DNA from: Desulfatiglandales bacterium
GTDB taxonomy: Bacteria > Desulfobacterota > DSM-4660 > Desulfatiglandales > Desulfatiglandaceae
Assembly (NCBI GenBank): GCA_963662465.1
Contig: OY759599.1
Coordinates: 8,097,626-8,161,625 of the forward strand
Direction of reading: 5' to 3'
Length of the DNA: 64,000 nt
Position numbers and translations under genes: made by a program. This document shows positions 21,659 through 64,000 of this stretch, in pieces. Within the stretch, counting starts at the first letter, position 1. Each line of letters opens with the position of its first letter. The notes under the pieces are model-generated. The model was not told the origin of the DNA. It worked only from the letters and a program-made list of their open reading frames with translations, and made no database searches.

Positions 21659-21713
21659 GCAATTCTTTTCGCAAAAGAAATCCTGTAAAATCCTGTTAAT
21701 CCTGTCTAAAAAA

Positions 21714-22112
21714 ATGGAACAGGAAGACCTAACCCACAAAATCATCGGCTGTGCCTACAAAGTATATAACACCCTCGGCTTCGGTTTCCTTGAAAGCATC
21801 TATCACAAAGCCATGCTGATCGAACTTGCCGAAGTCGGGATGGTTGCCGAATCAGAAAAACCCCTGAAAGTCACTTACAGAGACAAAATAATTGGTGAAT
21901 TTTCAATAGACATATTCGTTGAAAATGAAATCATCGTGGAACTCAAATCCGTTGAGCATCTGGTGAAAGCCCATGAGGTCCAGGTCGTCAACTACCTCAC
22001 AGCCTCAAAAAAGGAAATCGGTCTCCTCATCAACTTCGGACCCACCGGAGTCAAAGTTAAAAGAAAATACAGAAAAAGTCTTGCACAGTATTTACAGGCT
22101 CAACCAGATTAA
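21714..22112 (+). CDS. GxxExxY protein (PD-(D/E)XK-like)
   Basis: GFLESIY, DIFVE..IIVELK, Q..NYL and GLLINFG motifs; flanked by 9-mer triplets at 21679 and 22123. Confidence 0.9.
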   Translation: MEQEDLTHKIIGCAYKVYNTLGFGFLESIYHKAMLIELAEVGMVAESEKPLKVTYRDKIIGEFSIDIFVENEIIVELKSVEHLVKAHEVQVVNYLTASKKEIGLLINFGPTGVKVKRKYRKSLAQYLQAQPD

Positions 22113-25414: not shown

Positions 25415-26329
25415 TTGATGCAACAAAAACAACCCAATGCAACCATTAACAACGCCTCCTCTCCTCTCGGCGTGTCCACCTCCCCCAGCGGAGAGGAATT
25501 CCCTTTACCACGGCCCGAGGACTATAACCAGGAATTCAAGAGACTCAAGAAACTGGTGAATGAACAACGGCTCAAGGGCCGGGAAATAGTTGTTGTCATG
25601 GGTGTCGGGTTTGTAGGCGCTGTTATGGCGGGTGTGGTTGCCGACTCAGTGAATCGGGAAACGGGGGAATCCAGGTATTTCGTCATCGGCATGCAGCGGC
25701 CTTCTCCCCGATCTTTCTGGAAAATCCCGTACCTCAACCGGGGCATTGCCCCCGTGGAAGCCGAGGACCCGGATGTGGCGCCCTTGATTCAACGGTGTGT
25801 ACAGGACAAGCAGACCCTCACAGCCACCTTTACCTACGACGCCCTGTCACTTGCGGATGTGGTGGTAGTGGATGTTCAGTGCGATTACCACAAGGAGAGC
25901 CTGGGGAATGTTCGTCAGGGACATGCCGACATCGAGGCGCTGGAAGAGAGTCTCAAGATTATCGGAGAGAAGATTGAACCGCACTGTCTGGTCTTGATCG
26001 AAACGACCGTTCCTCCCGGCACCACGGAGTATGTGGCATACCCCATCATAAAAAGGGCCTTTGAAGCGCGCGGGCTTTTTCAGATATCAGATGTCGGAGA
26101 TCAGCGATCAGAGCAGGTAAATCCCGAATCAGAGCCCAAATCTCAGTCCTCCTTGCCCCGTGAAATTCACGTCAGTGACGAACACAGCGAATTTCACCGG
26201 GGTGACCTCCGTCCTCCGACGTCTGACCTCTGTCCTCACCCGTGCCTTGCATGTGGCCCAGTTGGTGCGCGATGCGCTGCGGAATATGGGACGGATAGTG
26301 GCTGCTTCCAAAATTATTCCAGCGCTTGA
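25415..26329 (+). pseudogene. 5' duplicate of the dehydrogenase, broken at the repeat linker
   Basis: Near-identical to 12690-13355; different linker (heptamers plus hairpin), then an out-of-frame jump to the equivalent of about 13900. Confidence 0.85.
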
Positions 26330-47859: not shown

Positions 47860-49068
47860 ATGAAAAGAAATCCAGTCATTGTTTATAATTGTTCTTACAA
47901 CGGATTAAGTATAATTCAGGAGTTAGCAACGAAAGGTATTCCCTGTATAGCCATGGACACAATTTTGTCTATTGGAGCATTTTCAAAATTTTCAAAATTC
48001 AGGCGCTGCCCAGATCCGTTGAAAGACGAGCTTGCTTTTATCGAAGTTTTATATGAATTGTGTGCATCTCTTCCATTAAAACCGGTTTTATTCCCTACTA
48101 ACGATGAGTGGGCGTTGGTCACAGCCAAACATAAAAACAGATTATCAGAAGTGTCTTATCCTTGTGTATCAAATTACGAAACAGTTGACATCATTCTCTC
48201 GAAAGATAAGTTTTACAAAATCGGGCAGGATAAAGAATATATGACCCCTTATACATGGGAGATTGAAGATGTTTTGACTGTTAAGGATGATGTTTTTCCG
48301 ATTGTAGCAAAGGCAAAATATAAATCATTGCCTGGTGTAAAAGCCAACGCCCATATTAACAAGGCTTTAAAAGAAAATCGCCTGATTGTTTTGAACGATA
48401 AAAAGCAGTTGGAAGTTTATGTTAAACTGCATTCGGAAATACTGTCTCATTTGGTCTTTCAAGAATATATTGCCGGAGATTCTTCCAATATGTTTACGAT
48501 AGGCATATTTGCTGATGCGAAAAGCGATATTAAGGCGTTGTTCACCGGCAGAAAGGTGCGAGGATACCCGGCTGATATTGGGGATAACATTCTTGGAGAA
48601 TCTTACGTAGTTCCGGATTTTCTTATCGAAAACACTAAAAAAATTGTTAAAGAAATGACATATACCGGTATTGCAGAATTTGAGTATAAAAAAGATCAGC
48701 ATACTGGGAAATATTATCTGATAGAAATCAATCCACGACCGTGGTCCTGGATCGGAATAACACCATATTGTGGGGTGAATATTCCATACATTGCCTATCA
48801 ATCATTACTCGGACAAACGGTTATGTTTCAAGAATCAGTGGCCGAAATTAGCAAAGTGAAATATGTCAAAATCTATCAAGATTTTTTTAATTGTTTGGTC
48901 AGATACCGTTTCCATCATAAGCCTTGGCATTATTCATATGCCGAATGGAAAAACACTTTGAAAGCATCCAAACTGGTAATTGCAGAATGGCATAAAGGCG
49001 ACTGGCCAATAGTTTTTGCATCAATACCCTATTTAATGGGTAAGTTGCTATTTCAGAGATGGAAATAG
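47860..49068 (+). CDS. ATP-grasp carboxylate-amine ligase
   Basis: LFPTND, QEYI.G and EFEYK.D...Y.LIEINPR motifs. Confidence 0.85.
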   Translation: MKRNPVIVYNCSYNGLSIIQELATKGIPCIAMDTILSIGAFSKFSKFRRCPDPLKDELAFIEVLYELCASLPLKPVLFPTNDEWALVTAKHKNRLSEVSYPCVSNYETVDIILSKDKFYKIGQDKEYMTPYTWEIEDVLTVKDDVFPIVAKAKYKSLPGVKANAHINKALKENRLIVLNDKKQLEVYVKLHSEILSHLVFQEYIAGDSSNMFTIGIFADAKSDIKALFTGRKVRGYPADIGDNILGESYVVPDFLIENTKKIVKEMTYTGIAEFEYKKDQHTGKYYLIEINPRPWSWIGITPYCGVNIPYIAYQSLLGQTVMFQESVAEISKVKYVKIYQDFFNCLVRYRFHHKPWHYSYAEWKNTLKASKLVIAEWHKGDWPIVFASIPYLMGKLLFQRWK

Positions 49069-49069
49069 A

Positions 49070-49897
49070 ATGGATTTCACAGGCAAAATATACCATCGGC
49101 TCCTTAAGGCCCTGCTCGCGCAGGATTTCAAATTCCAGCCCTTTGCCGTGTTCATGCAAACCCCGGCACCCCGGGCTATTATTTTGCGCCACGATGTGGA
49201 CCGGCTCCCAGGAAATGCTCTGAAAACCGCCCGCCTGGAGCATGATCTGGGCACCCCTGCATCCTACTATTTCCGGGCGGTGCCGGAAAGCTGGGATGAG
49301 ACGATTATCCAGAAGATCGCTGGCCTGGGCCATGAGATCGGGTATCATTATGAAAACCTGTCTGCCTGCAAAGGCGGTTCCGCCCGGGCCTGGGAGGATT
49401 TTCAGGCCAACCTGGCAAAGCTGCGGGATCTGGCGCCGGTGACCACCATCTGCATGCACGGCAGCCCCCTGTCCCGGTATGATAACCGGGATCTTTGGCA
49501 GCATTACGATTACCATGATTTGGGCATCATCGGAGAACCATATTTCGATGTGGACTACAGCCGAGTATTTTATATGACAGATACGGGACGGCGGTGGGAT
49601 GGAGGTCGGGTTTCTGTACGCGATAAGGTCGGAGGACCGAGGAACGACGGAAAAAAGGATAAGAAGGTAAGAGGGTTAGAAGGAGTTAAGCAGTGGCCGT
49701 CGTTTCATTCTACGTTTGATATTATAGAGGCGGTGGAGGCTGGGAGGTTTCCGGATAAGGTGATGATGACGGTGCATCCACAGCGTTGGATGGATGATCC
49801 GTTTCAATGGACTAAGGAGTTGGTTTTGCAAAATGTTAAGAATGTGGTGAAACGTGTCTTAATATCTCGCGCAAAGACGCAGAGCCGCAAAGGCTAG
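49070..49897 (+). CDS. Polysaccharide deacetylase-like protein with a repeat-encoded linker
   Basis: RHDVD, GHEIGYHYE, MHGSP, TDTGR.W and HPQRW motifs; linker at about 49628-49690. Confidence 0.75.
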   Translation: MDFTGKIYHRLLKALLAQDFKFQPFAVFMQTPAPRAIILRHDVDRLPGNALKTARLEHDLGTPASYYFRAVPESWDETIIQKIAGLGHEIGYHYENLSACKGGSARAWEDFQANLAKLRDLAPVTTICMHGSPLSRYDNRDLWQHYDYHDLGIIGEPYFDVDYSRVFYMTDTGRRWDGGRVSVRDKVGGPRNDGKKDKKVRGLEGVKQWPSFHSTFDIIEAVEAGRFPDKVMMTVHPQRWMDDPFQWTKELVLQNVKNVVKRVLISRAKTQSRKG

Positions 49898-49948
49898 AAG
49901 ATCAGAAGGTTAGAAGTTTAGAGGGTGAGCAAACAGGAAATTGATGGG

Positions 49949-50347
49949 ATGCAAATTGATTTTCATCATGCGGTAACTTATGTGGTGGCGCGTTTGGCGG
50001 GCTTCGGACACAGGGAGGCAGACGTCATTGCTTATTGCGCCCAGTATGTGGACGATGCGACGAACAGTGGCGAGATCATTTTTGAGAATGGCGCCATGTA
50101 TGGCCGCATCTGTTCAGCGCACAAGGGTTTGGACTACCGGCACTTTGATGTTCTGGCCAGTCGCAGGGTGTGGGTGCCGTTTCATTTTCTGCCGGCAAAT
50201 GGTGGTAAGAAGGCGGGGGAAAATCCGTATGGGACCTTCATTGATAAGTTGGTGTGTGGACCAGACAGTCATGTGCTGAGAGATATGGTGCGAATGTACA
50301 TTGAAAAGCGGGGCGCTCTGTTTGGGTTGCATCGGCTGGGGATTTAA
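49949..50347 (+). pseudogene. Truncated DUF6765-like protein
   Basis: MQIDFHH..TY..AR.AGF...AQYVDD; stops immediately before the repeat array. Confidence 0.55.
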
Positions 50348-50357
50348 ATACAGTGAT

Positions 50358-51516
50358 GAGTTTTGGGTTTTGGGTTTTGGGTTTTGAGTTAAAGGAAACG
50401 TCCTGATTATGGGTGATAGGAAGATCTTTAAAGACAGTTTTGGGTTATGGGTTAGGGAACTGCGGTTTTGAGTTTTGGGTTATGGGTTTTGAGTTAAAGG
50501 AAACGTCCTGATTATGGGTGATGGGAAGATCTTTAAAGACAGTTTTGGGTTATGGGTTAGGGAACTGCAGTTTTGGGTTTTGAGTTTTGGGTTTTGAGTT
50601 AAAGGAAACGTCCTGATTATGGGTGATGGGAAGATCTTTAAAGACAGTTTTGGGTTATGGGTTAGGGAACTGCAGTTTTGGGTTTTGAGTTTTGGGTTTT
50701 GAGTTAAAGGAAACGTCCTGATTATGGTTGATGGGAAGATCTTTAAAGGCAGTTTTGGGTTATGGGTTAGGGAACTGCGGTTTTGAGTTTTGGGTTATGG
50801 GTTTTGAGTTAAAGGAAACGTCCTGATTATGGGTGATGGGAAGATCTTTAAAGGCAGTTTTGGGTTATGGGTTAGGGAACTGCGGTTTTGAGTTTTGGGT
50901 TATGGGTTTTGAGTTAAAGGAAACGTCCTGATTATGGGTGATGGGAAGATCTTTAAAGGCAGTTTTGGGTTATGGGTTAGGGAACTGCAGTTTTGGGTTT
51001 TGAGTTTTGAGTTTTGAGTTAAAGGAAACGTCCTGATTATGGTTGATAGGAAGATCTTTAAAGGCAGTTTTGGGTTACGGGTTAGGGAACAGCAGTTTTG
51101 GGTTTTGAGTTTTGAGTTTTGAGTTAAAGGAAACGTCCTGATTATGGGTGATAGGAAGATCTTTAAAGACAGTTTTGGGTTATGGGTTAGGGAACTGCAG
51201 TTTTGAGTTTTGAGTTTTGAGTTTTGAGTTAAAGGAAACGTCCTGATTATGGTTGATAGGAAGATCTTTAAAGACAGTTTTGGGTTATGGGTTAGGGAAC
51301 AGCAGTTTTGGGTTTTGAGTTTTGGGTTTTGAGTTAAAGGGAACGTCCTGATTATGAGTGAAAGGAAGATCTTTAAAGACAGTTTTGGGTTATGGGTTAG
51401 GGAACAGCAGTTTTGAGTTTTGGGTTTTGGGTTTTGAGTTAAAGGAAACGTCCTGATTATGGGTGATGGGAAGATCTTTAAAGACAGTTTTGGGTTATGG
51501 GTTTTGAGTTTTGGGT
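50358..51516 (+). repeat. 11 x 105-bp tandem array built on TTTTG(G/A)G heptamers
   Basis: Core AAAGG(A/G)AACGTCCTGATTATG starts at 50391, 50496, 50601 ... 51441 (period 105). Confidence 0.95.
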
Positions 51517-51906
51517 GAAAACCAGAAGAAAATTGACGAAAGGACTTTTGATTTTGCTTTGTTGGTGGTTGATGCTTACAGGTTTTTGCTGCACAAAAAA
51601 GAGTTTGTTTTATCCAAGCAATTTTTGAGAGCAGGCACTTCAATAGGTGCCAATGTCACAGAGGCACAGGCGGCTCAGAGTAGAAATGACTTTATTTCAA
51701 AGATGTCCATTGCTTCAAAAGAGGCAAGGGAGACGGATTATTGGGTTCGGCTTTTCAGGAAATCCGGGTATTTTAAAGGGTATGAAAAATTGGGTGTTTT
51801 GGAGAAAGATATTGCAAGTATCATGAGGATCTTGACGAGTATCGTAAAAACCACTCGGGAAAATCACCCAAAACCCAACACTCAAAACCCAAAACCGCTA
51901 AAATGA
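51511..51906 (+). CDS. Four-helix-bundle protein (23S rRNA IVP / bAvd-like family)
   Basis: LSKQFLRAGTSIGANV.EA..AQS..DFI.K..IA.KEA.ET.YW motif; both termini encoded by heptamer repeats. Confidence 0.92.
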   Translation: MGENQKKIDERTFDFALLVVDAYRFLLHKKEFVLSKQFLRAGTSIGANVTEAQAAQSRNDFISKMSIASKEARETDYWVRLFRKSGYFKGYEKLGVLEKDIASIMRILTSIVKTTRENHPKPNTQNPKPLK

Positions 51907-52352
51907 GGTGTTGTATTCATTTAAGCTGGCTCCCAAATCCAAAACGCGGGCCATACCCTCTATGGTGCCGGGATTTGCAAACAAAAAATACTTTTGCATA
52001 GAAAATCTCCTTTAATGGCGCCAGTATAACAGCGCAATTTCTCAGAAATCAAGCAGAAATCTACGATTACCAAAAAAAACAGCAGAGGATCAAAAAAAGT
52101 TCTTCAGAAGGAAAATCGGGGTCTGGCTTTCCTTGTTATCGTTTTGGGTGAAAAGGAGATCGATGAATAGGCTTTTGATTTTTCCTTTTTCTCACCACAA
52201 GACACAGAGTTCACTGAGAAAAAATGGAGAGGCGCTTTGATCGCTTCGTCTCTTAGCCTGTTTGCTGCCGATTGCTTGAGGGGGTTGGGAGGTTGTGGAA
52301 TGGGGGACGCTGTCCCCGAATTTTGTTTTTCGCGCAAAGACGCAGAGGCGCA

Positions 52353-52390
52353 GGGACCTGGGGGACGTCCATTTGTAATTCAGTAACTCG
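52353..52390 (+). repeat. Dispersed GGGACCTGGGGGACGTCCATTTGTAATTCAGTAACTCG motif
   Basis: Further copies at about 56003-56040, 57197-57233 and 57239-57276. Confidence 0.85.
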
Positions 52391-52453
52391 AAAGCATAGG
52401 AATTTCCATTTTTGATTTGGCATATCAAATAGTTGTTGCAGTGATGGCATTAA

Positions 52454-53788
52454 ATGTGTCAAAAAAAGCACATTATGCATATGCCATCAAACCAAAAAAT
52501 TGATAAGGAGACTTTCCGGACGATTTTTATTGATCATTGGGAATTATTCAAAGAGCATCATCCAGGGTATGATAATTCGCAATATGAAGATCCGGTTCAG
52601 AAAATGCTTGGTTGCGGCAAGGAAAGCGCCGGATATAGCGAGCACCGGTGTGTTTATTGCGGTGGTGATGTTCGCCGGATAGGTTTTAGTTGCAAGAGCT
52701 GTTTTTGTTTATCCTGCGCCAAGAAATATGTTGACGATTTTGTCAGTCAAGTGAGTAGGGTGCTTCATGGGGGCATGAATTACCGTCACATTGTTTTGAC
52801 AATTCCCGAGCAACTGAGAATCGTTTTTTATAAGGCTCGAAATGATGGACGTTTGTTATCGGCTTTTATGAGATGCGGGTACGAATGTTTGGAGGATGTT
52901 GTCGGAACGGTTCTTCGGCGGAAACTGAAAATAGGAACGATCGTCGTTGTTCAAACGCATGGTCGATCCGGTCATTATAATCCGCATTTGCATATCATCA
53001 TGACAAGCGGTGGGATAAATGAAGATCTGTGCGGTTGGTTTGATTTAAGGTTCTTCAAGTATGAGATTATACATAAGAAATGGCAGTATCATCTATTCAG
53101 AATGCTCAAGTCCCATTTTAACAGCAGTGCGGTCGATAAACTTATTGATGAGCTGTGGAAAAAATACCCTAAAGGTTTGGTAGCCAATGTGAGCAAGGGT
53201 AATGTTCCTGAGACATGTGGGGGTCTGGCGCGATATTTGGCGAAATATGTTGCATCTCCTCCGATAGCTCTGAGACGGATAATCAGTTATGATGGCCAAT
53301 ATGTTACCTATTGGTACAATGATCACATGACAAAATCCAGGAAGGTTGAAACCGTGGAAGTGGATGTTTTTATCGGTCGAATGGTTCAACACATAATGCC
53401 CAAAGGGTTCCAGCGGGTTCGTTATTATGGGCTACAGGCTACGAAAACTTTTAAGAAATGGTCGGAAGTAATACGGAAAGGGATGAAGGCTTTGGGGCGT
53501 GGGATTAAAGGAACGTATCAAGTCGTAAAAGCGAAAAGATATCGAGAACGTTATAAGGAGATCAGCTCTCAAGATCCTTTTTTGTGTCGTTATTGTGGCC
53601 ATGAAATGGTGCTATGGAAGATATGGCATCCAAAATATGGAGTTTTATATGACGAATATGAAAACATCAAAAACGACAGGTACGGCACGGTTACAGGACA
53701 AAATGACAGCGGGGGTGGAAGGCGAGGACTTCCCGTTCGGCCCTCCTCCGGAGGAATATCCTTACCGTTGTTCCCATTGCCGGCATGA
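52454..53788 (+). CDS. IS91-family HUH (Y2) transposase
   Basis: Zn-binding SCKSCFCLSC, H.VLTIP, HUH NPHLH, YLAKY and RVRYYG motifs. Confidence 0.9.
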   Translation: MCQKKHIMHMPSNQKIDKETFRTIFIDHWELFKEHHPGYDNSQYEDPVQKMLGCGKESAGYSEHRCVYCGGDVRRIGFSCKSCFCLSCAKKYVDDFVSQVSRVLHGGMNYRHIVLTIPEQLRIVFYKARNDGRLLSAFMRCGYECLEDVVGTVLRRKLKIGTIVVVQTHGRSGHYNPHLHIIMTSGGINEDLCGWFDLRFFKYEIIHKKWQYHLFRMLKSHFNSSAVDKLIDELWKKYPKGLVANVSKGNVPETCGGLARYLAKYVASPPIALRRIISYDGQYVTYWYNDHMTKSRKVETVEVDVFIGRMVQHIMPKGFQRVRYYGLQATKTFKKWSEVIRKGMKALGRGIKGTYQVVKAKRYRERYKEISSQDPFLCRYCGHEMVLWKIWHPKYGVLYDEYENIKNDRYGTVTGQNDSGGGRRGLPVRPSSGGISLPLFPLPA

Positions 53789-53939
53789 AATGAAGGTAAA
53801 TGAAGCGATAATAGACGTCGAGATTGCAAAAGCAGAATATGAAGGAAGGAATGTGGAAGGCTTTATGCCCATTCTCGGTTGCCCTCAGTGCAATCGAGAA
53901 ACAATGAAATATGCGCAAGGTAGAAAGCCCGCGCGTTAG
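53703..53939 (+). CDS. Small Zn-ribbon ORF overlapping the transposase end
   Basis: CSHC...CPQC; lies inside the IS. Confidence 0.5.
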   Translation: MTAGVEGEDFPFGPPPEEYPYRCSHCRHEMKVNEAIIDVEIAKAEYEGRNVEGFMPILGCPQCNRETMKYAQGRKPAR

Positions 53940-54059
53940 CGCGCTAAGTTCATATTTTGGCACCCCGGTTAAACCCCAGTGGGGGAAGCGCCCTTAACTT
54001 TTTAACTTTAGTTTGGGTTCTCGCGCGGAGGCGCTGAGACGCAAAGAAGAGAGGAAAAA

Positions 54060-54276
54060 AAGGTGAGAGGGTTAGCAGAGGTCGGAGGTCGGAGGACTGA
54101 GGTCGGATGTCGGAGGTCGGAGGTCGGAGGGCGGATGTCGGAGGTCGGAGGTCGGAGGACGGAGGACGGAGGACGGAGATCGGAGGACGGAGATCGGGAA
54201 AAGACAGAGGTCGGATGTCAGAGGTCGGAGGTCGGATGTCGGAGGTCGGAGGACGGAGGACGGAAGGCGGAGGACT
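54060..54276 (+). repeat. GGAGGTC/GGAGGAC heptamer array
   Basis: Same family at about 55697, 57423-57790, 58762-58860, 60400-60525, 62757 and 63177; reverse complement at 13360 and 26205. Confidence 0.9.
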
Positions 54277-54513
54277 GATCGCAGGTCTCAGGAATTGGGC
54301 ATAAAAACAGCCATTTCAGAATCTTCGGTTTCATTCCACGTTTGATATTGTTGAGAAATAGGGGGCGCTGGCAACTTTGTAAACTTATTCAGGGCGGTGG
54401 TCCACATACCGAAGGAATAGGCTACACTGAAGCACAAAAGGGTTTTTTGCTTGACGGCGGGGTGTTGGTACTTGGTCGTTGCCATTTGATAAGATTTTGG
54501 TTATTATCGGATT

Positions 54514-55515
54514 ATGAGTAATGAAATCGGATCAGCGCACAATAATCTGTTCCAGAACATCCTTGGCCGTGAAGATATGGCCAGGGATTTTGTCCGGTAT
54601 TATATGCCGGCGGAAATCGTCGGCGATCTGGACCTGGATACTTTGGAAGTGGCCTCTGAATCGTATATCAGTGATGATCTCAAAGAGAGCCTTTCCGATA
54701 TCGTACTCAGCCTCCAGCTCAAGGATGGGGACCCGGCTGAAATATACATTCTTATGGAACACAAAAGCGGGTTGCACAGAGGCACGCGGCTGCAACTTTT
54801 GAATTATATGAACGCCAAATGGCATGAGCTGGACAAGGCCGGAGAGTTTCGGGGATCACTGGCTGTTATCATTCCCGTGGTTTTCTACCATGGCAAGAAA
54901 AAATGGAGATACAGCCTGGAATTCTCGGACCAGTTCAATCTGCCTGGAGAGCATTATAGGAGATATGTCCCCAAATTCGAACATATTTTGCATGAAGTTC
55001 CGGAGATCAATAAGCGCAAGATCAAATCCACCATCGCTCTTGAAGTATTTCATGTGGTGCTGGAGTGTATTTTCTACCCGGAGAAACGGGAGCGAATTTA
55101 TGAATCCCTTGAGTTGTTGTTTCAGGGGTTAAACACGGATAAGGCCGGCGAGCTGTTTTATGTGTTTGTCAAATACCTGCTTTCCGCCACCGATGTAAAC
55201 CCCAGAGAGGTGGAAAAGAGGGTAAAACATCTTCCAAAAGGAGAAGAGACCGTGCGTACTACAGCAGAAGTTTTGAGGAAAGAAGGCTATGACAGTGGAG
55301 TGGTTTTCGGCGAACAACATGGCAAGCTTGAAACCGCTCAGGAAATGCTCATAGACGTCGCCGGTGAACGATATGGACTTTTGCCTTCCGTACTGGAAGC
55401 GAAAATCAAATCCATTAAGTCCATCACGACTTTGAAAAATTTGGCAAGACAAGTCGTTAAGCTGGACAGGATGGAGGGTTTTGAAAGGCTCGTCAACAAG
55501 GCTGTGGATCATTGA
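54514..55515 (+). CDS. Rpn-family recombination-promoting nuclease/putative transposase
   Basis: SDIV.S, YILMEHKS, Q.L.Y and IPVVFYHG...W motifs. Confidence 0.9.
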   Translation: MSNEIGSAHNNLFQNILGREDMARDFVRYYMPAEIVGDLDLDTLEVASESYISDDLKESLSDIVLSLQLKDGDPAEIYILMEHKSGLHRGTRLQLLNYMNAKWHELDKAGEFRGSLAVIIPVVFYHGKKKWRYSLEFSDQFNLPGEHYRRYVPKFEHILHEVPEINKRKIKSTIALEVFHVVLECIFYPEKRERIYESLELLFQGLNTDKAGELFYVFVKYLLSATDVNPREVEKRVKHLPKGEETVRTTAEVLRKEGYDSGVVFGEQHGKLETAQEMLIDVAGERYGLLPSVLEAKIKSIKSITTLKNLARQVVKLDRMEGFERLVNKAVDH

Positions 55516-56363
55516 TGCCAACTGAACCTCCAAACCCCACCCAAAACATAGTACCCCTTCCTTTCCCTTTACCTATTTTAGCCCAAAGCCATTTTGGGCA
55601 AGCTGTTCCAATTATCTACTCACCTTGGCCTTGAGCTTACTCGTAATGGAATAGGACGTTGTTCCGTAATTCCGTTTTTTGCCCACGAATCACACTGAGG
55701 ACAGAGGACGGAGGACGGAGGTCGGAGGGCGGCGTGGACGTAGGGAACGTAGTCAACTTGTAAACTTACTGATTGAGAAAAACCATTTTCAGGTGATGGG
55801 TGATTGTGTTGCGTGAAAACCCGCGTCTCCCGCGTGGCCCCTGCTTAGGGACGAGACAAGCAGGCTGGGGCTTGGGTACAGGACGAAAATCCTTTACACA
55901 AAATCGATTAATTGTTTATGACCCAGACCTCGTTATTTGATCTAACAAGCACCGTTTTTTGGACACCATCCTCGTCATATCAGCTGTATGGAGGCAAATT
56001 GTGGACCTGGGGGACGTCCATTTGTAATTCAGTAACTCGATATTTTGGCACCCCGGTTAAATGCGTTCCACTCGTCACTGGCGTGAATTTAACGGGGCAG
56101 GCGCATTTCACAGATGGCACAGATTAATTGTTTCGCGCCCAGTGAAACAACTGCAACGAAGGTTTCACAAGGCAGGCAGAGGCGCAAAGATAGAAGCTGA
56201 AAACTCAAAGGGGAAAGGACAGGGGGCAAAACTGCGGGATGGATGGATAAGTAGGGTTTTCACAGTAAGGCGGCAAAGCCGCAGTTTTGGGTTTTGGGTT
56301 TTCAGTCATTAAACTTCTTGTTTTTTGGGAAAGAAGACCAGGTACTATAGCAGCGATTATGGC

Positions 56364-56391
56364 TTGACTTTACACCATAAAGGTGTAAAAT
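56364..56391 (+). promoter_or_regulatory. mqsRA promoter with palindromic operator
   Basis: TTGACT..TAAAAT overlapping TTTACACC-ATAAA-GGTGTAAA (56369-56389). Confidence 0.7.
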
Positions 56392-56400
56392 GGATAAAGA

Positions 56401-56718
56401 ATGACAGAAAAACGAAAACCAACATACGATATAGAAGCTTTCAAAACAGCTTTTGCCAATATGGAGAGACTTTCCGCCACGGGCACAGCGCTACGAAGCG
56501 CCGCCGCATTGGGATTCGGACGCGCGGAGATCGTGGCGACGATCCAGTCAATGCAGCGAGGGCACTTTTACAAGTCTATGACCGCTTATGCCAATCATCG
56601 ACTTTGGCAGGACGTCTACCACGTCCCTTCACCGGCCGGCGAGTTGTATGTTAAGTTCACCGCCGATACCGTTACAGAGTTTTTGTTGCTATCGTTTAAG
56701 GAGAAAGACGATGACTAA
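56401..56718 (+). CDS. mqsR: MqsR toxin
   Basis: EKRKPTYD, FYKSMT....WQDVY and LLSFKEK motifs. Confidence 0.92.
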   Translation: MTEKRKPTYDIEAFKTAFANMERLSATGTALRSAAALGFGRAEIVATIQSMQRGHFYKSMTAYANHRLWQDVYHVPSPAGELYVKFTADTVTEFLLLSFKEKDDD

Positions 56719-57178
56719 TCCCATTTGTCCGGAAACGGGTGCTCCGATGCACCGCGGCGTGCAACCGATAACCATCAGGTACAAGAGCGAGACGATCACT
56801 TTCGATATGCCGGGGTGGTACTGCGACCAGTCTGATGAGAGCATTCATACCGGCAAGGACATGAAGGTATCCGACCGAATGTTAAATCGCCTTAAAGCCC
56901 TTAGCGAAGGGCTGCTTGAACCGGAGGAAATTCGTCGTATCCGCAAGAAGATTGATCTTACGCAGGAAGTCGCGGGGCGGGTAATCGGTGGTGGCCCGCG
57001 TGCCTTCCAAAAATACGAAAGCGGAGACCTGTTGCCGAGTCGGGCCATCAGTAGCGCCTTGACTTTGCTTGATCATTACCCCGAGGCGTTGGCCGTGCTT
57101 AAAGCAGGGCGCGGTATTGAAGAGCCCCTGCCTTACAAAACGACGGACCACGGCCATAACCAGAGCGCCGCTTTTTGA
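56711..57178 (+). CDS. mqsA: MqsA antitoxin (Zn ribbon plus HTH)
   Basis: CPE...GWYC, IRRIRKK..LTQ..A...GGG..AF.KYE.G motifs. Confidence 0.9.
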   Translation: MTNPICPETGAPMHRGVQPITIRYKSETITFDMPGWYCDQSDESIHTGKDMKVSDRMLNRLKALSEGLLEPEEIRRIRKKIDLTQEVAGRVIGGGPRAFQKYESGDLLPSRAISSALTLLDHYPEALAVLKAGRGIEEPLPYKTTDHGHNQSAAF

Positions 57179-58006
57179 TACCATCATGAAATGCGTGGGA
57201 CCTGGGGGACATCCATTTGTAATTCAGTAACTCAATGAGGACCTGGGGGACGTCCATTTGTAATTCAGTAACTCGATATTTTGGCACCCCAGTTAAATAA
57301 TAGCAAAAACAGATTTAACCCCGCTACCATCTTCCAGCACTGCGGGACAGGCGGGGCAGGCGCATTTCACAGATGGCACCCCGGTTGAACACCCTGGAAG
57401 GGAACCCGGTTCAACTGGGCAGGGAGGACAGAAGGCAGAGGTCAGACGACAGAGGACAGGGGACGGAGGACAGAGGACAGAGGACAGGGGACAGAGGACG
57501 GAGGGCGGATGTCGGAGGACGGAGATCAGAGGACAGATGGCGGAAGACAGATCCCAGGTCTCAGGAATTGGGCATAAAGAACAGCCATTTCAGAATCTTC
57601 GGTTCCATTCCACATTCGATATTATTGAGGCGGCGGAGAATCCCAGAGGTCAGAAGTCGGAGGTCGGTGGTCGGATGTCGGATGTCGGAGGTCGGAGGTC
57701 AAGAGGAAAAGAAGGTGAGAGGGTGAGAAGTTAAGAAGGTGAGAGGGTTAGCAGAGGACAGAGGACGGGGGACGGAAGGCGGAGGGCAGGGATAAAAGAA
57801 AAGGATCCCAGGGGTCAGGCTTTCCTTATTGTTGGTTGTGGGGGGATGTTGAGAGGGTCGCGCTGAGATCCACAGGTTACGCAGATGACACGGATTGGTA
57901 AGTATCTGGAAACGCCGCGCCCAGGTTGAATGAATAAAAAGGTCTTGACTGCCACCGATTGAATGCATAGACTAAGTTCATTGAACTCAATTTTATGAGG
58001 TGACCC

Positions 58007-58252
58007 ATGCAAACTGTTAATATCCACGAAGCCAAGACGCACCTTTCACGCTTGGTTGACGAGGCTGCCAAAGGAAATGTTTTTATCATTGCCAAGGCAG
58101 GAAAACCGATGGTCAAAGTTTTGCCCCTGTCGGATGGTGTGGTTGACGGGACTGAAAGGTTGGGGTTCATGTCCGGTGAGATCACGGTACCGGACGATTT
58201 TGATTCTCTCGGGGCAACGGAAATTACCATGCTTTTTGAAGGAAACCCCTGA
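58007..58252 (+). CDS. Phd/YefM antitoxin
   Basis: VNIHEAKTHLSRLV...IIAKAGKP; TTGACT-17-TAGACT promoter at 57945. Confidence 0.9.
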   Translation: MQTVNIHEAKTHLSRLVDEAAKGNVFIIAKAGKPMVKVLPLSDGVVDGTERLGFMSGEITVPDDFDSLGATEITMLFEGNP

Positions 58253-58638
58253 TGAAACTGTTGTTGGATACGCACATTGTTCTGTGGGCTGCAGGTCAGC
58301 CTGAAAAGCTTTCCGAATCAGCCCGAACTCTCTTGACAACACCCGAAAACGCTTTGTTTTTCAGCGTGGCCAGCATGTGGGAAATTGTCATCAAACGGGG
58401 CCTGGGACGGGACGATTTCAAGGTGAATTCGAGGCGCTTGAGAAAGATGCTTATCGCAAATGGTTATAACGAACTATCTGTTGATGCGGAGCATGTTTTT
58501 ACGGTCGAAACGCTGCCTTTACGTCATAAAGACCCTTTTGATCGCTTGCTGCTGGCCCAGGCTAAAACGGAGGGAATGCTTTTGCTTACGGTTGATGCAT
58601 CCGTTCTGCAATACCAGGAATCTGTGTTGGCTGTTTAG
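58252..58638 (+). CDS. vapC: VapC PIN toxin
   Basis: LLLDTH..LW, S.WEI.IK and HKDPFDR.L.AQA motifs. Confidence 0.92.
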   Translation: MKLLLDTHIVLWAAGQPEKLSESARTLLTTPENALFFSVASMWEIVIKRGLGRDDFKVNSRRLRKMLIANGYNELSVDAEHVFTVETLPLRHKDPFDRLLLAQAKTEGMLLLTVDASVLQYQESVLAV

Positions 58639-59004
58639 GGGAAGCACGGGCACTATTTGCCTCGGTATGGGATTTGTGTGGCTTAGATCCGCAGATTACG
58701 CAGATTACACGGATTAGGTGTCTCGCGCCAAGACGCCAAGGCGCAGAGAAGAGAGGATAGATGACGGGGGACGGAGGGCGGAAGACAGAGGACGGAGGAC
58801 GGAGGACGGAGGACGGAGGTCGGATGTCGGAGGTCGGAGGTCGGAGGTCGGAGGACAGAGGGTGAGAAAATCTAACGGGTTGAAGCCGGAATTTACACTC
58901 ACCATCAGGCGTTGCAACATGTACTCGATAGCAACTTGCAGCCTATCCAAAGGGCTTCTTGCTGCCACGATCCTGGTGCATTATCTGTCGGAAAGGATCC
59001 GAGT

Positions 59005-59340
59005 TCAATCTGCGGAAATAAGCCGTTGAGCTATGGCGCAGGCCTTTGATAAGGTTTTCTTGTCAACGCCGCCGATTTTTTTTACCAATCGTTTTTTGTC
59101 CAAACTTCTTAATTGATCCAGCATGATCTTTGAATCCTTGTCAAGACCGGCTGTACCACGGGGGATGAATACTTCAAATGGGTATATTTTCCGGGTTGTC
59201 GAGGTTATGGGCGCAACAATCAACCTGGAAGAGTTGTGATTCATGACATTTACCGAAATGACCAGCCCAGGCCTGGTCTTGCCGATTTCAGTATGTAGGG
59301 TCGGGTCCAAATTGACAAGATATACGTCTCCCTGATCCAT
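59005..59340 (-). CDS. mazF: MazF/PemK toxin
   Basis: LDPT...EIGKTRP.LVIS, APITS and DQLRSLDK.RL motifs. Confidence 0.92.
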   Translation of the reverse strand: MDQGDVYLVNLDPTLHTEIGKTRPGLVISVNVMNHNSSRLIVAPITSTTRKIYPFEVFIPRGTAGLDKDSKIMLDQLRSLDKKRLVKKIGGVDKKTLSKACAIAQRLISAD

Positions 59341-59583
59341 TTAGTCCCACCCCTCTGGGTCCAAGGATTCCCATACTCTAATATCGGCCTGACGGTCTTT
59401 GTCTTTTGCAGCCTCTGAAAATGCCAGGCTCAATGCCTTTTCCTCTTCCTGCCGTATTTTTTTTGTGATTTCGTTTTTTAATAACTCATTGACAACCCTG
59501 CTTTTCTGGCGATTCGGAACCAGTTCCCCAAACCTTTCCCATATTTGGCGCTCAATGGTTAAATTTACCCTGATCTGTTCCAT
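59341..59583 (-). CDS. Putative MazE-type (RHH) antitoxin
   Basis: RVNLTI start, acidic C-terminus, directly upstream of mazF. Confidence 0.75.
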   Translation of the reverse strand: MEQIRVNLTIERQIWERFGELVPNRQKSRVVNELLKNEITKKIRQEEEKALSLAFSEAAKDKDRQADIRVWESLDPEGWD

Positions 59584-59798
59584 CCGTCCCTCCTTCCTCT
59601 ATTTGTGTTGCCTGCTGGATGTATACTAATACAGCAAAACCAGAAGGGCAAGGGATTAACGGGGTCAGGCTTTCCTTATTGTCGTTTTGAGGAATTGGTG
59701 TTTTGGAAAAGGGATTGCGAAAAGTAGAGGGCGCCTAATCTCGCTGGCATCAACGATGATGCGGCCGCATGGATAACTGAAAAAGGCAGTTTTACGTT

Positions 59799-60101
59799 CT
59801 AAGTGTTTCGGCCAGAGTCTACAAGGGCCATCTCGATTCGTTTTCCCAGTACAGCGGCAGCTTTGCTGATTGTGGCGATGGTTACGTTGTGTGCTTCTTC
59901 ATTGAGAAGACGTTCCAATGCTGATCTGCTCGTTTTCATTCGGGTTGCCATCTCTGTTTTTCGAATACCTTGTTCTTCCATCATGGTTTTTAGCTGGTGG
60001 GCAAGGTTTTTTTTCAAGGCATTCAACTGAACTTGCTCATAGATGCCCTCTTCCTGGAGGAAATCATCAAAGCTCTGCCCTACATGGTGTTTCTTTAGCA
60101 T
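59799..60101 (-). CDS. XRE-HTH antitoxin
   Basis: G.SFDDFL.EEG, MA.RMKTSRS...RLL motifs. Confidence 0.85.
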   Translation of the reverse strand: MLKKHHVGQSFDDFLQEEGIYEQVQLNALKKNLAHQLKTMMEEQGIRKTEMATRMKTSRSALERLLNEEAHNVTIATISKAAAVLGKRIEMALVDSGRNT

Positions 60102-60104
60102 TTC

Positions 60105-60377
60105 TTAGCCCTCCATTTCTCTTTTTCTGCTTTTGGCCAATTCAAGATCCCCTTTCGGAATCTTTTTTGATTTTTTGATGAATCCATGGAGCAGGTACAA
60201 TTGATCAGATTCAATGAAAAAGAGTACCCGCGCTGCTCGGCCGTTCGAAATCCGAGAGCGTATTTCAAAATTTCCGTTTCCGAGAGGCTTACATCTTGGG
60301 GGACCTACAGGCCAATGATATTCCACATTGGCGATATCTCCGCCGATCTCTATTCTGTCCTCTTTGGCCAATGACAA
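60105..60377 (-). pseudogene. RelE/Gp49-like toxin, probably 5'-truncated by the repeat block
   Basis: WPVGPP, EIRS, ARVLF and LLHGFIKK motifs; no clear start or RBS. Confidence 0.7.
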
Positions 60378-60574
60378 TAGCCATTCCCGGACAGTAAAGA
60401 CAGATGTCAGAGGTCGGAGGTCGGAAGTCAGGAAGGGACAGAGGGCGGAGGTCGGAGGGCGGAGGACGGGAAAAGACAGAGGTCGGATGTCGGATGTCGG
60501 AGGTCGGAGGTCGGAGGTCGGGGGTGAGGGGGCTGAGTTTTGGGTTCTGGGTTATGGATTTTGAGTTAGAAATG

Positions 60575-60620
60575 GAAGAAAATTGACGAAAGGACTTTTG
60601 ATTTTGCTTTGTTGGATGTT
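60575..60620 (+). pseudogene. 5' fragment of the four-helix-bundle gene
   Basis: GAAGAAAATTGACGAAAGGACTTTTGATTTTGCTTTGTTGG identical to about 51525-51565, again preceded by TTTTGGG heptamers. Confidence 0.8.
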
Positions 60621-60629
60621 TAGGCGAAG

Positions 60630-60920
60630 TTACGCTCGATGTGCGTGCAGCTTTAGCCCAAGGGCCTTAATGACCTTGAGGATCGTCCCGAATTCCGGGT
60701 TTCCATTCTTTGAGAGCGCTTTGTAAAGGTTCTCCCTTGCCAGTCCGGTATCGCGTGCCAGCTGTGACATACCTCTGGCTCGCGCGATGACCCCCAATGC
60801 ATGAGCGATGAATGCGGGGTTGTCCCCTGCTTCTTCGAGGCAGGCATCCAAATATGCTGCCATATCGTCATCGGTTTTCAGATATTCGGCGGTATCGTAT
60901 CGGGTAAATTTTTCAGACAT
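60630..60920 (-). CDS. Addiction-module antidote (HI1420-like HTH)
   Basis: D.AEYL, ALG.IARARGMSQLA..TGL.RE.LY..LS..GNP motifs. Confidence 0.9.
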   Translation of the reverse strand: MSEKFTRYDTAEYLKTDDDMAAYLDACLEEAGDNPAFIAHALGVIARARGMSQLARDTGLARENLYKALSKNGNPEFGTILKVIKALGLKLHAHRA

Positions 60921-61221
60921 TCTTCAACCCCTTCCATTTCTTGGCAATCGTTTGTGCCTGCTGGATATCCCGGTCCTGTGAGGATTTGTCACCACCACAC
61001 AGCATCACCAACATGTTCAACTCGGGCTGCATGCAGTAAAGCCGATAGCCTGGTCCGTAGTGAATGCGCAACTCGGACAGCCCATGCCCAATGGGGCGAA
61101 TATCACCCAGGTTGCCTAAGCCCACACGATCAAGTTTTGCATGGATCCTCATGCGTGCCCGACGGTCTTTCAGATTCCCTAACCATTGAGAAAAAGTGGC
61201 ACTTTCGATAATTTCAATCAT
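60913..61221 (-). CDS. Addiction-module killer (RelE/ParE, HI1419-like)
   Basis: GNLGD...G.SELRIHYGPGYR.Y and GGDKSSQ..DI motifs. Confidence 0.9.
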   Translation of the reverse strand: MIEIIESATFSQWLGNLKDRRARMRIHAKLDRVGLGNLGDIRPIGHGLSELRIHYGPGYRLYCMQPELNMLVMLCGGDKSSQDRDIQQAQTIAKKWKGLKNV

Positions 61222-61335
61222 ATCTGGCTTTGTAACTTACAAAATACAATAAGTCAAGCAAGAACAATTTGAGGGTTCGTTTCTTCACAGGAGACGACGG
61301 AAGACGGAGGATGGATGACAGCGGGTCGGCTGATA

Positions 61336-61593
61336 GCGTGGCCGTCCTTTCATTCGACGTTTGGTATTGTTGAGGCGGTGGAGGGGGGGAGGTTTCCGGA
61401 TAGAGGCGATCCCGGTGAAATACGCTTCGCTGTCACTATCATGAGTTTCACGGGACGAGTGATGACGGTGCATCCGCAGCGTTGGACGGATGATCCGGTG
61501 GCGTGGACGAAGGAGCTGGTTTGGCAGAATTGTAAGAATTTAGTGAAACGTATTGTTGTTCGCAGATTACGATCCGCAGATTACGCCGATTGA
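61336..61593 (+). pseudogene. Divergent 3' duplicate of the deacetylase-like gene with a hairpin insert
   Basis: WPSFHSTF...GRFPD[insert]VMTVHPQRWTDDP..WTKELV; shorter copies at about 54325 and 57598. Confidence 0.8.
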
Positions 61594-61642
61594 CGCAGAT
61601 TAAAGTTCTTGCGCAAAAAATGCAAAGAATAAGAAGAAATTA

Positions 61643-62860
61643 ATGTCAAGAAATGAATATAGGGTCTTTCTTGTGGTGGGTGCGCGGCCGAATTTTATGA
61701 AGATTGCGCCGATTGTCAGAGCGCTTAAAGCACAAAGCGATCCGCAGATTACGCCGATTACACAGATTGATTGGAAGATTGTGCACACCGGGCAGCATTA
61801 TGATTATGAAATGTCGCAGGCGTTCTTCGATGATTTGAAGATTCCCAAACCCGATCATTTCCTGGAGGCGGGGCCGGGGAGCCATGCGGAGCAGACGGCC
61901 AGGATTATGGTCAGTTTTGAGAAGCTTTGCGAGCAGGAGCGGCCGGATCTGGTTGTGGGCGATGTCAATTCCACCCTGGCGTGCTCCGTGGTGTCCAAAA
62001 AGATCGGCATTGAAGTGGCCCACGTGGAGGCCGGGTTGCGGAGCTTTGATCTGTCCATGCCCGAGGAAATCAACCGGATGGTGACGGACGCTATAGCGGA
62101 TTATTTTTTTGTGACGGAGCGAAGCGGGGTAGAGAACCTCAAAAAAGAAGGAAAGCCCGAAGACCGGATCTTTTTTGTCGGGCATGTGATGATTGATAAT
62201 CTCTTGCATCAGCTGGAGGAAGTCCGCACGAATCATTTTCCTTTTGAGCATCGGGCGCTGAAGGATAGTCTTGACGAGTATATTTTCATGACGCTGCACC
62301 GGCCCGCCAACGTGGATGACAAGGAAATTCTTAGCGGGATCGCGGGGACTTTGGCCCGCGTGGCAAAGCATGTGCCCGTCATTTTTCCGGCACATCCCAG
62401 AACCGGGAAGATGCTGGCGCATTTCGGGATTGAGCTGCCGGAAAATATTCATCGGCTGCCGCCTTTGGGGTTTCGAGAGTCCTTGTACCTGTGGAAAGAT
62501 GCCAAAATGGTGATCACCGACAGCGGGGGGCTGCAGGAAGAGACCACGGCCCTGGGTGTTCCCTGCCTGACGTTGAGGGAAAATACCGAGAGACCGGTCA
62601 CGGTAACGGAAGGGACGAATCAGCTGGTGACGGTTAATGATCTCGAGGACCGGGTACTGGAAATCCTGGCGGGAAGAGGAAAAAAGGGTCGGGTGCCGGA
62701 GTTGTGGGACGGAAGAGCGGCGGAGCGGATTGTGGGGGTTTTGGCGGAAATTTCACAGAGGTCGGATGTCGGATGTCGGAGGGCCGGAAGTAGGTGGTTA
62801 GAAGCGTTAGGCGTGCCCTTTTCCCCTAGAGCTTTTCTGTTGTTTATGGATAAAATATAG
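61643..62860 (+). CDS. wecB: UDP-N-acetylglucosamine 2-epimerase (non-hydrolysing)
   Basis: GARPNFMK, HTGQHYD, HVEAGLRS, TDSGGLQEE, TERP and WDG.A..RI motifs; repeat-derived insert and tail. Confidence 0.92.
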   Translation: MSRNEYRVFLVVGARPNFMKIAPIVRALKAQSDPQITPITQIDWKIVHTGQHYDYEMSQAFFDDLKIPKPDHFLEAGPGSHAEQTARIMVSFEKLCEQERPDLVVGDVNSTLACSVVSKKIGIEVAHVEAGLRSFDLSMPEEINRMVTDAIADYFFVTERSGVENLKKEGKPEDRIFFVGHVMIDNLLHQLEEVRTNHFPFEHRALKDSLDEYIFMTLHRPANVDDKEILSGIAGTLARVAKHVPVIFPAHPRTGKMLAHFGIELPENIHRLPPLGFRESLYLWKDAKMVITDSGGLQEETTALGVPCLTLRENTERPVTVTEGTNQLVTVNDLEDRVLEILAGRGKKGRVPELWDGRAAERIVGVLAEISQRSDVGCRRAGSRWLEALGVPFSPRAFLLFMDKI

Positions 62861-62914
62861 AAAAGCCAAACCAAATATGATCATTATCAACCCACCTAAG
62901 ATGACAGAATACAT
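62807..62914 (-). CDS. 35-aa single-TM peptide
   Basis: ATG directly follows the TAG of 62915-63112 with GGAGG upstream; MYSVILGGLIMIIFGLAFLYFIHKQQKSSRGKGHA. Confidence 0.5.
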   Translation of the reverse strand: MYSVILGGLIMIIFGLAFLYFIHKQQKSSRGKGHA

Positions 62915-63112
62915 CTATGCCTCCTTTTCGATAAATATGGCTAATAAATATACGAAAACAGAAATAATTACGCCTAAAAAAACCAATATCGGGTTTATTT
63001 TAAGTTGATGAAACAAAGGTGCAATGACTGAAGTGGCGAAAATGATCTTGCCAGTATCAGTTAGAATGTCTGCAATCCTTTTCTTTTGTTTTTCGTTCAG
63101 AATCATAGCCAT
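62915..63112 (-). CDS. Small two-TM membrane protein
   Basis: Two hydrophobic segments; same architecture as 17602-17778. Confidence 0.6.
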   Translation of the reverse strand: MAMILNEKQKKRIADILTDTGKIIFATSVIAPLFHQLKINPILVFLGVIISVFVYLLAIFIEKEA

Positions 63113-63218
63113 TCGCTTTCCATTTCTTTAACTTTATACTCAGATTGGAGTTGTGTCAATTTAAAAAGAAGCTTCTGGACGGAGGGCTGAGGTCGGAGGT
63201 CGGAGGACGGAGGACAGT

Positions 63219-63415
63219 GTTGAGTTTTGGGTTTTGAGTTTTGAGTTGAAGGGAAAGGGCGGAAGACAGTTTTGAGTTTTGGGTTTTGAGTTTTGAGTTG
63301 AAGGGAAAGGGCGGAAGACAGTTTTGAGTTTTGGGTTTTGAGTTTTGAGTTGAAGGGAAAGGGCAGAAGATAGTTTTGAGTTTTGGGTTTTGGGTTTTGA
63401 GTTGAAGGGAAAGGA
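63219..63415 (+). repeat. 4 x 52-bp tandem array built on TTTTG(A/G)G heptamers
   Basis: GAAGGGAAA core at 63248, 63300, 63352 and 63404. Confidence 0.9.
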
Positions 63416-63495
63416 CGGAGGACGGAGGGCGGAAGACAGAGGTCGGAGGGCCTCTCCCTACTGGGCATGGAGATATGGAGGCAGCGTCTCAGGGT

Positions 63496-63861
63496 CTAGT
63501 CGATCTCGAGTACCAGCTTAAGGGCTTCGACAACCTCTTCCATTCGGCGTGGCGGCATTGTGCCAACCAACTGGGGTTTTTTTGTCTTAGGATCGTAAAA
63601 TCTTTTAGGATCCAGGGAGCGCATCTGGAAACAGAGAAATACTGTATCTTTGGGAAGGCCCGTCTCAGCTGATGGCACACGTACATTTGTGGGGTAGTCT
63701 CTTGGCACATTCCGCGCATCTGTGCCCACTACAACTGAAACAACGAGCGGTTGTTTATTTATGGCGTCGCTTGATATCACGAGGACTGGTCTGCGGCCCG
63801 CCTGCTCCCGACCTTTAATCGGGTTCAAATTTACCAGATAAATTCCGCCGCGCTTGATCAT
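63496..63861 (-). CDS. mazF: MazF/PemK toxin
   Basis: LNP..GREQAG.RPVLVIS and QMRSLD..R motifs. Confidence 0.9.
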   Translation of the reverse strand: MIKRGGIYLVNLNPIKGREQAGRRPVLVISSDAINKQPLVVSVVVGTDARNVPRDYPTNVRVPSAETGLPKDTVFLCFQMRSLDPKRFYDPKTKKPQLVGTMPPRRMEEVVEALKLVLEID

Positions 63862-64000
63862 AATTCACAAACCATCGTTTTCCGCTTCCGTAAACTCCTC
63901 GGACAAAACAGAACACACATCCCGGATTGCAGGGTCATCGGCCATTTCAGCCATAGCTGTTTCAAATTGATATTTTTTTTGACGTTTTGTGAAATCGATC
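63858..64000 (-). CDS. C-terminal part of the cognate antitoxin (runs off the window)
   Basis: Reads ...AMAEMADDPAI...EEFTEAENDGL* overlapping the mazF start. Confidence 0.6.
   Translation of the reverse strand, partial: SISQNVKKNINLKQLWLKWPMTLQSGMCVLFCPRSLRKRKTMVCEL

Follow-up and report, generated by a model that had tools for sequence, protein, structure and literature searches.

Background

The 23S rRNA of Coxiella burnetii contains an intervening sequence (IVS) in which an S23p ORF is enclosed by a 28-bp stem that is cut by RNase III; according to the accessible part of its description (Warrier et al. 2016, PMC4990558), tandem heptamers whose copy number varies between strains are located just before the start codon. 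Intergenic 7-base tandem repeats are known from Xanthomonas and Nostoc (PMC4692102) and from Beggiatoaceae (PMC4679880); in the accessible text of these papers, intergenic heptamers, their inverted pairs and their stop-codon polarity have already been published. For the behaviour of whole arrays, BIME-2 arrays are, by analogy, the nearest precedent. Finally, Avd of diversity-generating retroelements (DGRs) is reported in excerpts of PMC10053308 and 10.1101/344556 to have a fold homologous to that of the S23p proteins and to form a basic pentamer. Our literature search, which was thin on subscription papers and was confined to main texts without supplements, found no published description of a comparable cassette outside rRNA.

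Results and discussion

Anatomy of the locus

We analysed a window of 64,000 nt from a Desulfatiglandales genome (OY759599.1, 8,097,626-8,161,625). Positions without prefix are window coordinates; G000 denotes this genome and C1 its contig. In the window, a polysaccharide-synthesis island comes first and toxin-antitoxin-like, IS91 and Rpn genes come after it, most labels being read from translations. The locus consists of the following features:

49925..50347, + strand: upstream gene, truncated DUF6765 ORF of 140 aa (Pfam PF20551, positions 1-131 of 325)
50357..51503, + strand: tandem array, 10.9 x 105 bp (Tandem Repeats Finder and unit comparison)
50464..50568, + strand: complete 105-bp unit, the reference copy for searches (unit comparison)
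51352..51370, + strand: start-region copy in unit 10, 19 nt (sequence comparison)
51459..51518, + strand: 19-codon mini-ORF of the last unit, whose stop overlaps the start region of the four-helix-bundle gene (ORF reading)
51487..51518, + strand: terminal left arm of G/T-rich heptamers, containing the TTG start (inverted-repeat pair, sequence)
51511..51906, + strand: intact four-helix-bundle gene, TIGR02436/PF05635 (S23p family), 131 aa (profile matches)
51864..51899, + strand: single right arm of C/A-rich heptamers, reverse complement of the left arms (inverted-repeat search)
52391..53952, + strand: IS91-family insertion, context only, missing from the second copy of the locus (profile match)

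Tandem Repeats Finder places the array at 50359-51503, with a period of 105, 10.9 copies, 95% matches, 0% indels and a score of 2024. The array begins about 10 nt past the stop of the truncated DUF6765 ORF and runs into the start of the four-helix-bundle gene, whose TTG codon lies inside the last heptamer run. The encoded protein is a member of the S23p family, as curated cut-offs are exceeded over the whole domain: it matches TIGR02436 with an E-value of 7.3e-28 (97 bits versus a cut-off of 24, profile positions 3-108 of 109) and PF05635 with an E-value of 3e-22 (79.3 versus 33.8). The closest solved structures are 2RLD (E 8.4e-29) and 2GSC (E 4.6e-4), each of which has five chains per entry. 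With a calculated pI of 9.9, the protein is basic.

The arms overlap the ORF by its first 2-3 and its last ~13 codons; the right arm is translated as the end of the protein. It is complementary to about 22 left arms, among them 51301-51334 (34 nt, 91%) and the terminal left arm, which is 345 nt apart (32 nt, 88%). Folding of the last unit plus gene (51400-51910) gave a long stem around the ORF (z -2.5; 1 of 100 shuffles was as good). As in an IVS, the ORF is enclosed by terminal inverted repeats that can pair as a stem. The locus is not part of a 23S rRNA, since its flanks are protein genes; no Rfam match was obtained in 49000-54500 at E-values up to 1. Thus, four claims of the initial annotation were borne out: 11 units of 105 bp running into the gene start, a complementary run at the 3' end of the gene, an IVS-like stem around an ORF outside rRNA, and the four-helix-bundle identity of the protein.

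In agreement with the Coxiella IVS, as far as the available text of PMC4990558 describes it, a member of the same protein family is found in the loop of a terminal stem of ~30 bp, heptamers precede the start codon, and the ribosome-binding site is weak. In contrast to that IVS, the cassette is situated outside rRNA in a polysaccharide/toxin-antitoxin island (rRNA motifs are found near 6.65 Mb), it has a higher-order array, and its ORF is under purifying selection and not decaying. For the latter, dN was 0.10 versus a dS of 2.4 in the comparison with the homologue of genome G097, dS being saturated in three other comparisons. Because the cassette is not located in rRNA, we regard it as IVS-like in build and not as a member of the IVS class. 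Unlike for the DGR protein Avd, neither a reverse transcriptase nor a template/variable repeat was noticed next to the gene in a scan of 7 ORFs near the locus, which gave DUF6765, IS91 and Rpn as neighbours. Avd was not among the 6 sequence matches obtained at E-values up to 10.

Two observations concern the surroundings. The genome contains 19 further BLAST matches to the IS91-family element at 52391-53952; identity exceeds 99.7% in the top seven. The polysaccharide island holds two MarR_EPS regulators (TIGR04176) and a GxxExxY gene (TIGR04256), at 5802-6362, 18562-18945 and 21606-22112.

Arms accompany the gene family in other genomes

For a survey of GTDB, the best 80 of 101 relatives (79 loci) were considered, and 77 were scorable with at least 100 nt of flank. 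Arms were assigned if the 200 nt before and the 200 nt after the gene contained an inverted match with a score of 14 or more. Inverted arms were detected at 64 of the 77 homologous loci versus 1 of 127 shifted controls, and 7-base periodicity on both flanks at 50 of 77 loci versus 0 of 127 controls. The gene-repeat association expected by the initial annotation is therefore found in other genomes, and the arm-gene link is not special to this locus. Loci with arms span many bacterial phyla. In most cases, a homologue is flanked by a single arm on each side. Of the left arms at the 64 loci, 50 are G-rich and 7 are C-rich. In five genomes of the same family, arms were present at 17 of 28 scorable loci, a further 2 of the 30 being too short. 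These arms resemble the heptamers described in PMC4692102 and PMC4679880, which often form inverted pairs or lie just before a start codon and have forward stops in three frames; in contrast, no link to a four-helix-bundle gene was found in the portions of these two papers that are accessible.

The heptamer word covaries with the protein clade, a point that the initial annotation had suggested for checking. Arm similarity and protein identity were correlated (Mantel r 0.33, p 0.001); r was 0.29 when the 1366 cross-phylum pairs, not independent of each other, were taken alone, and the correlation with GC content was r 0.08. Mapping repeat classes onto the protein tree required 22 changes versus a shuffled mean of 41.6 (0 of 200 shuffles), where the six classes were defined by eye after seeing the data and 31 of 61 forks of the tree, which is based on a short alignment, are open. 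The genome itself contains 12 profile matches at 11 loci, and different clades bear different heptamers; consequently, the word belongs to the cassette and not to the host. As far as sequences can tell, the covariation shows shared inheritance and not recognition.

Close homologues adjoin different genes in G000, G097, G099 and G044. A gene family of dehydrogenases, which involves another heptamer family, offers a comparison at one site: of 7 matches, 2 have an empty site, 2 a single arm in frame and 2 an element with two arms, and the seventh is truncated. The differing neighbours and the states of the dehydrogenase site point to insertion and decay of cassettes, whose mobility appears likely from these comparisons. 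Neither a mobility enzyme associated with the cassette nor an unoccupied version of this particular insertion site was found.

Composition of the 105-bp unit

The unit is composed of left arm A (~32 nt), a 16-nt purine-rich spacer, a copy of the gene family's first codons, a short linker, left arm B (~18 nt) and a 10-nt spacer. Thus, the heptamers of the two arms account for only about half of the 105 bp. Both arms have the same direction, and the unit contains no inverted pair. The units of the window array differ solely by substitutions; whole units are 95% alike and lack the unique spacers of a CRISPR. In unit 10, the 19-nt start copy is identical to the exact starts of three four-helix-bundle paralogues (G000:103649, 7115782 and 7120665), and in the remaining units it has 2-3 changes. 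Because the start codon was duplicated with the unit, every unit bears a short ORF of 19-31 codons.

A complete unit also occurs as a single copy at two paralogues, G000:103525 (108 bp, due to a 3-nt insertion) and G000:7120566, in each case preceding a broken paralogue. In the congener G099, two loci each have one copy of the start region plus arm B, from which the 16-nt spacer is missing. Together with the second copy of the locus described below, the unit counts at four places in the genome are 1, 1, 11 and 26; hence partial, single and amplified states all exist.

The claim that the period is exactly 15 x 7 with nothing except point variation holds for the window array, where indels are absent, but not beyond it: there are 98-nt units in the second array and the 3-nt insertion at G000:103525. 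The 98- and 108-bp units and the sister periods of 44-59 bp imply that 15 x 7 is not a rule. Among six heptamer-arm arrays, the periods 105 and 35 are multiples of 7, and 44, 50, 52 and 59 are not.

Arrays in this genome and elsewhere

Genome-wide, we identified 37 arrays having a period of at least 35 and at least 3 copies. In 25 of these, the period is divisible by three and the frame is open, and 3 rows are of the CRISPR type. The remaining 9 non-coding, non-CRISPR arrays (7 distinct loci) are all built on cassette arms; their periods are 35, 44, 50, 52, 59, 105 and 203. Two of the sister arrays may be described individually. At 63204-63423 of the window, 4.2 copies of a 52-bp unit have the same left arm and a different spacer, and no four-helix-bundle gene follows. 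At G000:C1:1,480,065-1,482,604, 12.3 copies of a 203-bp unit, which is an internally deleted two-arm cassette, directly follow a GxxExxY gene (TIGR04256); this array is strongly mosaic, with four gametes at 16 of 21 site pairs.

The last unit plus gene was matched in 16 of 104 other genomes of the family. No long array was found outside G000 at the 30 loci fetched from family genomes, and 0 of 28 loci in five genomes of the family had at least 3 copies of a longer-period repeat. Beside the gene, a longer-period repeat was present at 9 of the 79 GTDB loci, with at most 4.5 copies. A metagenome scan with a 19-nt spacer pattern, from which records close to this genome may be omitted, matched 4 contigs, none of them in arm context. 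Note that the absence of the array elsewhere is weak evidence, because most of the comparison genomes are short-read assemblies, which collapse long arrays.

A second copy of the locus

The contig end at 8,082,092-8,161,625, which includes the whole window, repeats 29,146-101,959 with differing middle parts. The second array (G000:86291-88975) has 25.7 copies, and 2 of its 25 complete units have a length of 98 nt. Between this array and the gene, which is still intact, there is a transposase-like insertion of 2.0 kb (IS3-like by eye). The two copies of the gene differ by 3 replacement changes and 1 silent change.

In run X1, the window-specific contig had a depth of 10.6 and the contig over the gene one of 36.9; the latter has 6 differences from the window, the same number as between both copies over that block. 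A 6.6-kb contig beyond the duplicated block also had a depth of 36.9. Depths of shared-block contigs were 36-49 in X1 and 33-41 in X2, where X1 and X2 represent one sample that is not independent, as it may be the source data of the assembly, and depth does not equal copy number. Since a true duplication would double the depth of the shared block, the two copies are probably haplotypes of a mixed population, that is, one variable polysaccharide locus, and duplicates in this region may not be paralogues. The unit number, for which variation had been presumed, is 11 versus 26 in the two copies, which would amount to a VNTR if these are alleles of one locus; the contig depths fit two haplotypes, though depth is no copy number. 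As both copies have the array, it must have been retained for some time.

No complete unit type is common to both arrays; over the first 75 nt, 2 types are shared. Four gametes were observed at 29 of 45 site pairs in one array and 24 of 36 in the other. The variable sites alternate between two letters each, a pair that recurs in the other array and in G099. This pattern would result from recombination or conversion between units, from recurrent change, or partly from assembly error.

Here the question arises whether the array is an ordinary repeat that adjoins an unrelated gene or else an artefact of assembly, either of which we deem very improbable. It is true that the locus lies in a terminally redundant contig end and that no short-read contig spans the array. 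However, X1 contigs cover both flanks with 0-6 differences and the depth is much raised over the array (X1 not being independent), the unit is present at four places in the genome, and the arm-gene link is general in the survey; for the arms, this explanation has already been largely refuted.

Is the array a functional RNA?

The initial annotation had interpreted the array as a multimeric RNA ligand, a processing site or a switch. In this case, the units would serve as ligand or decoy for a pentameric protein, or their number would act as a switch in which alternative left arms set processing or translation. Several properties of the locus are in line with this idea. All 21 left arms that were scored can pair with the right arm at -20 to -45 kcal/mol, and alternative stems of each left arm with the single right arm are possible according to these calculations. 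The protein is basic, its solved relatives have five chains per entry, and a structural relationship has been reported to Avd (PMC10053308, in excerpt), a pentamer with positive charge that acts on RNA (10.1101/344556, in excerpt). Moreover, each unit has a short ORF, the last of which overlaps the gene start, and the array has been kept in both copies of the locus. Other findings argue against a functional array. The units are unstructured: two units folded worse than 198 of 200 shuffles (z +1.9). The array was not found in the other genomes compared, most homologues have one arm per side, and in the second copy the 2-kb insertion parts array and intact gene. In addition, amplifications with other periods occur at arms without an adjoining intact gene (63204-63423). 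We therefore consider an RNA role of the array quite unlikely.

More specific candidates were also evaluated. A hairpin or sRNA family formed by the unit was rejected for want of a fold and of an Rfam match. Repeated promoters were not predicted in the array; one promoter-like site was predicted in 49800-52450, where 3.7 are expected. Over the 64 loci, arm mismatches comprised 43 G.U versus 55 A.C pairs (p 0.27; by locus 12 versus 20). In this test, which is a weak one as heptamer arms can slip, mismatches have no sense-strand G.U bias; they do not favour sense RNA and thus give no support to selection on an RNA stem. The antisense duplex was stronger than the sense duplex for 21 of the 21 left arms scored here. 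A translation adapter was considered because stops in all three frames are found in the left arms of 42 of 64 loci versus the right arms of 13. This candidate was rejected: 59 heptamers have a stop versus 51.4 expected from composition, and the polarity is already contained in the accessible text of PMC4679880. With respect to transcripts, the RNA run X8 contained only diverged pieces of relatives, and runs X3 and X4 hold small shares.

Is the array actively amplified?

The array shares several traits with BIME-2 and atypical BIME arrays, as presented in the available sections of Ton-Hoang et al. 2012 (PMC3333891): it is a mosaic of a repeat end and linkers in tandem at one locus, and its near-identical units vary in number between strains and adjoin a gene with similar ends. 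Locus-specific, number-variable mosaic units are indeed what is seen here (1, 1, 11 and 26 units). Differences from the same published arrays are that no HUH transposase exists at the cassette, that tandem heptamers take the place of REP hairpins, and that the 105-bp unit has two arms of the same direction and does not fold. The bracketed gene is a TIGR02436 member and not a RAYT-type transposase, the nearby HUH gene belonging to the IS91 copy that the second copy of the locus lacks, and the palindromic, alternating units of REP/BIME elements have no counterpart in the 105-bp units.

An active process, in which a nuclease or a reverse transcriptase works on arm hairpins and adds or shuffles units, as proposed for REP/BIME beside TnpA(REP), would fit to the similar behaviour of BIME-2 arrays (PMC3333891, in part). 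It would also fit to the finding that all 9 long non-coding, non-CRISPR arrays at 7 loci are arm-built, including the 12.3 x 203 bp beside the GxxExxY gene. Furthermore, arm-built arrays are more scrambled, with four gametes at 64-76% of the site pairs versus 225 of 1128 (20%) in a coding array, although this control is a single array. On the other hand, direct repeats alone promote slippage, and the 105-bp unit has no internal inverted pair, unlike BIME-2 and the 203-bp unit. We also know of no catalytic site in the four-helix-bundle protein, which counts against active amplification. On balance, this process seems an unlikely origin of the array.

The favoured explanation

We think it fairly probable that gene plus inverted arms constitute a widespread and likely mobile IVS-like cassette, and that the array consists of copies of its left end, which were likely amplified recently and probably have no function. 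According to this proposal, the cassette would insert into polysaccharide and toxin-antitoxin islands, either within a gene or between two genes. The basic, presumably pentameric protein would likely bind the nucleic acid of its own arms, and a catalytic step would be contributed by something else. Slippage between neighbouring arms may have copied the left end together with the first codons; the single unit at two paralogues would be its product. Being bounded by near-identical arms, this unit could then expand by slippage and unequal recombination and be scrambled by recombination between units. We propose that the array is tolerated because one left arm suffices for pairing with the single right arm. 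A recent local amplification is the most likely origin of the array. Simple neutral slippage does not fully account for the recurrence of one letter pair at a variable site across the two arrays and G099; the mosaic pattern could partly be an assembly artefact.

A bolder version is conceivable, to which we assign a rather small chance. Armed four-helix-bundle cassettes might form a large undescribed mobile class, in which an Avd-like pentamer recognizes clade-specific arms. The arms would seed amplification and shuffling of the ends, the array being a snapshot of this process, and would also serve as joints for the rearrangement of surface-polysaccharide loci. A hint that arms may act as such joints comes from block ends: 16 of 34 ends of high-identity blocks lie at most 60 nt from an arm versus 19% of random positions, a difference that is confounded by intergenic position. 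These ends were counted in 3700-26700 and 52000-64000 of the window against the other copy or the locus at 7.0-7.14 Mb.

To our knowledge, the large S23p/TIGR02436 family has no known function, and we know of no explanation for the excess of 7-base repeats between bacterial genes. Tying both together as one cassette outside rRNA provides a testable basis for each of them, and the link raises the questions of whether the protein of a clade binds its own heptamer and whether the stem is cut. The locus under study adds intermediate array states with partial, one, 11 and 26 units, which illustrate how the ends of cassettes decay and grow, and it adds the observation, from a complete genome, that the long arrays which are neither coding nor of the CRISPR type are all arm-built. 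Likewise, it offers a natural series of unit numbers for asking whether extra arms matter.

Further arm-bearing sites

Several additional sites were noticed during the analysis. In the nucleotide-sugar dehydrogenase genes of the window (13362-13421 and 26080-26237), arms are inserted at one site; they are in frame in the intact copy, form a two-arm element in the truncated copy, and two other paralogues lack them. At 8674-8758, arms from two different families are read in frame as the linker of a 550-aa oxidoreductase/acetyltransferase-like ORF. In the whole genome, which has 398 merged period-7 arrays, 16 of 16 close inverted pairs of such arrays put the G-rich arm first. After one four-helix-bundle paralogue, from G000:C1 ~7,116,200 onward, a small palindrome is followed by a sequence that by eye resembles the 5' end of a group II intron.
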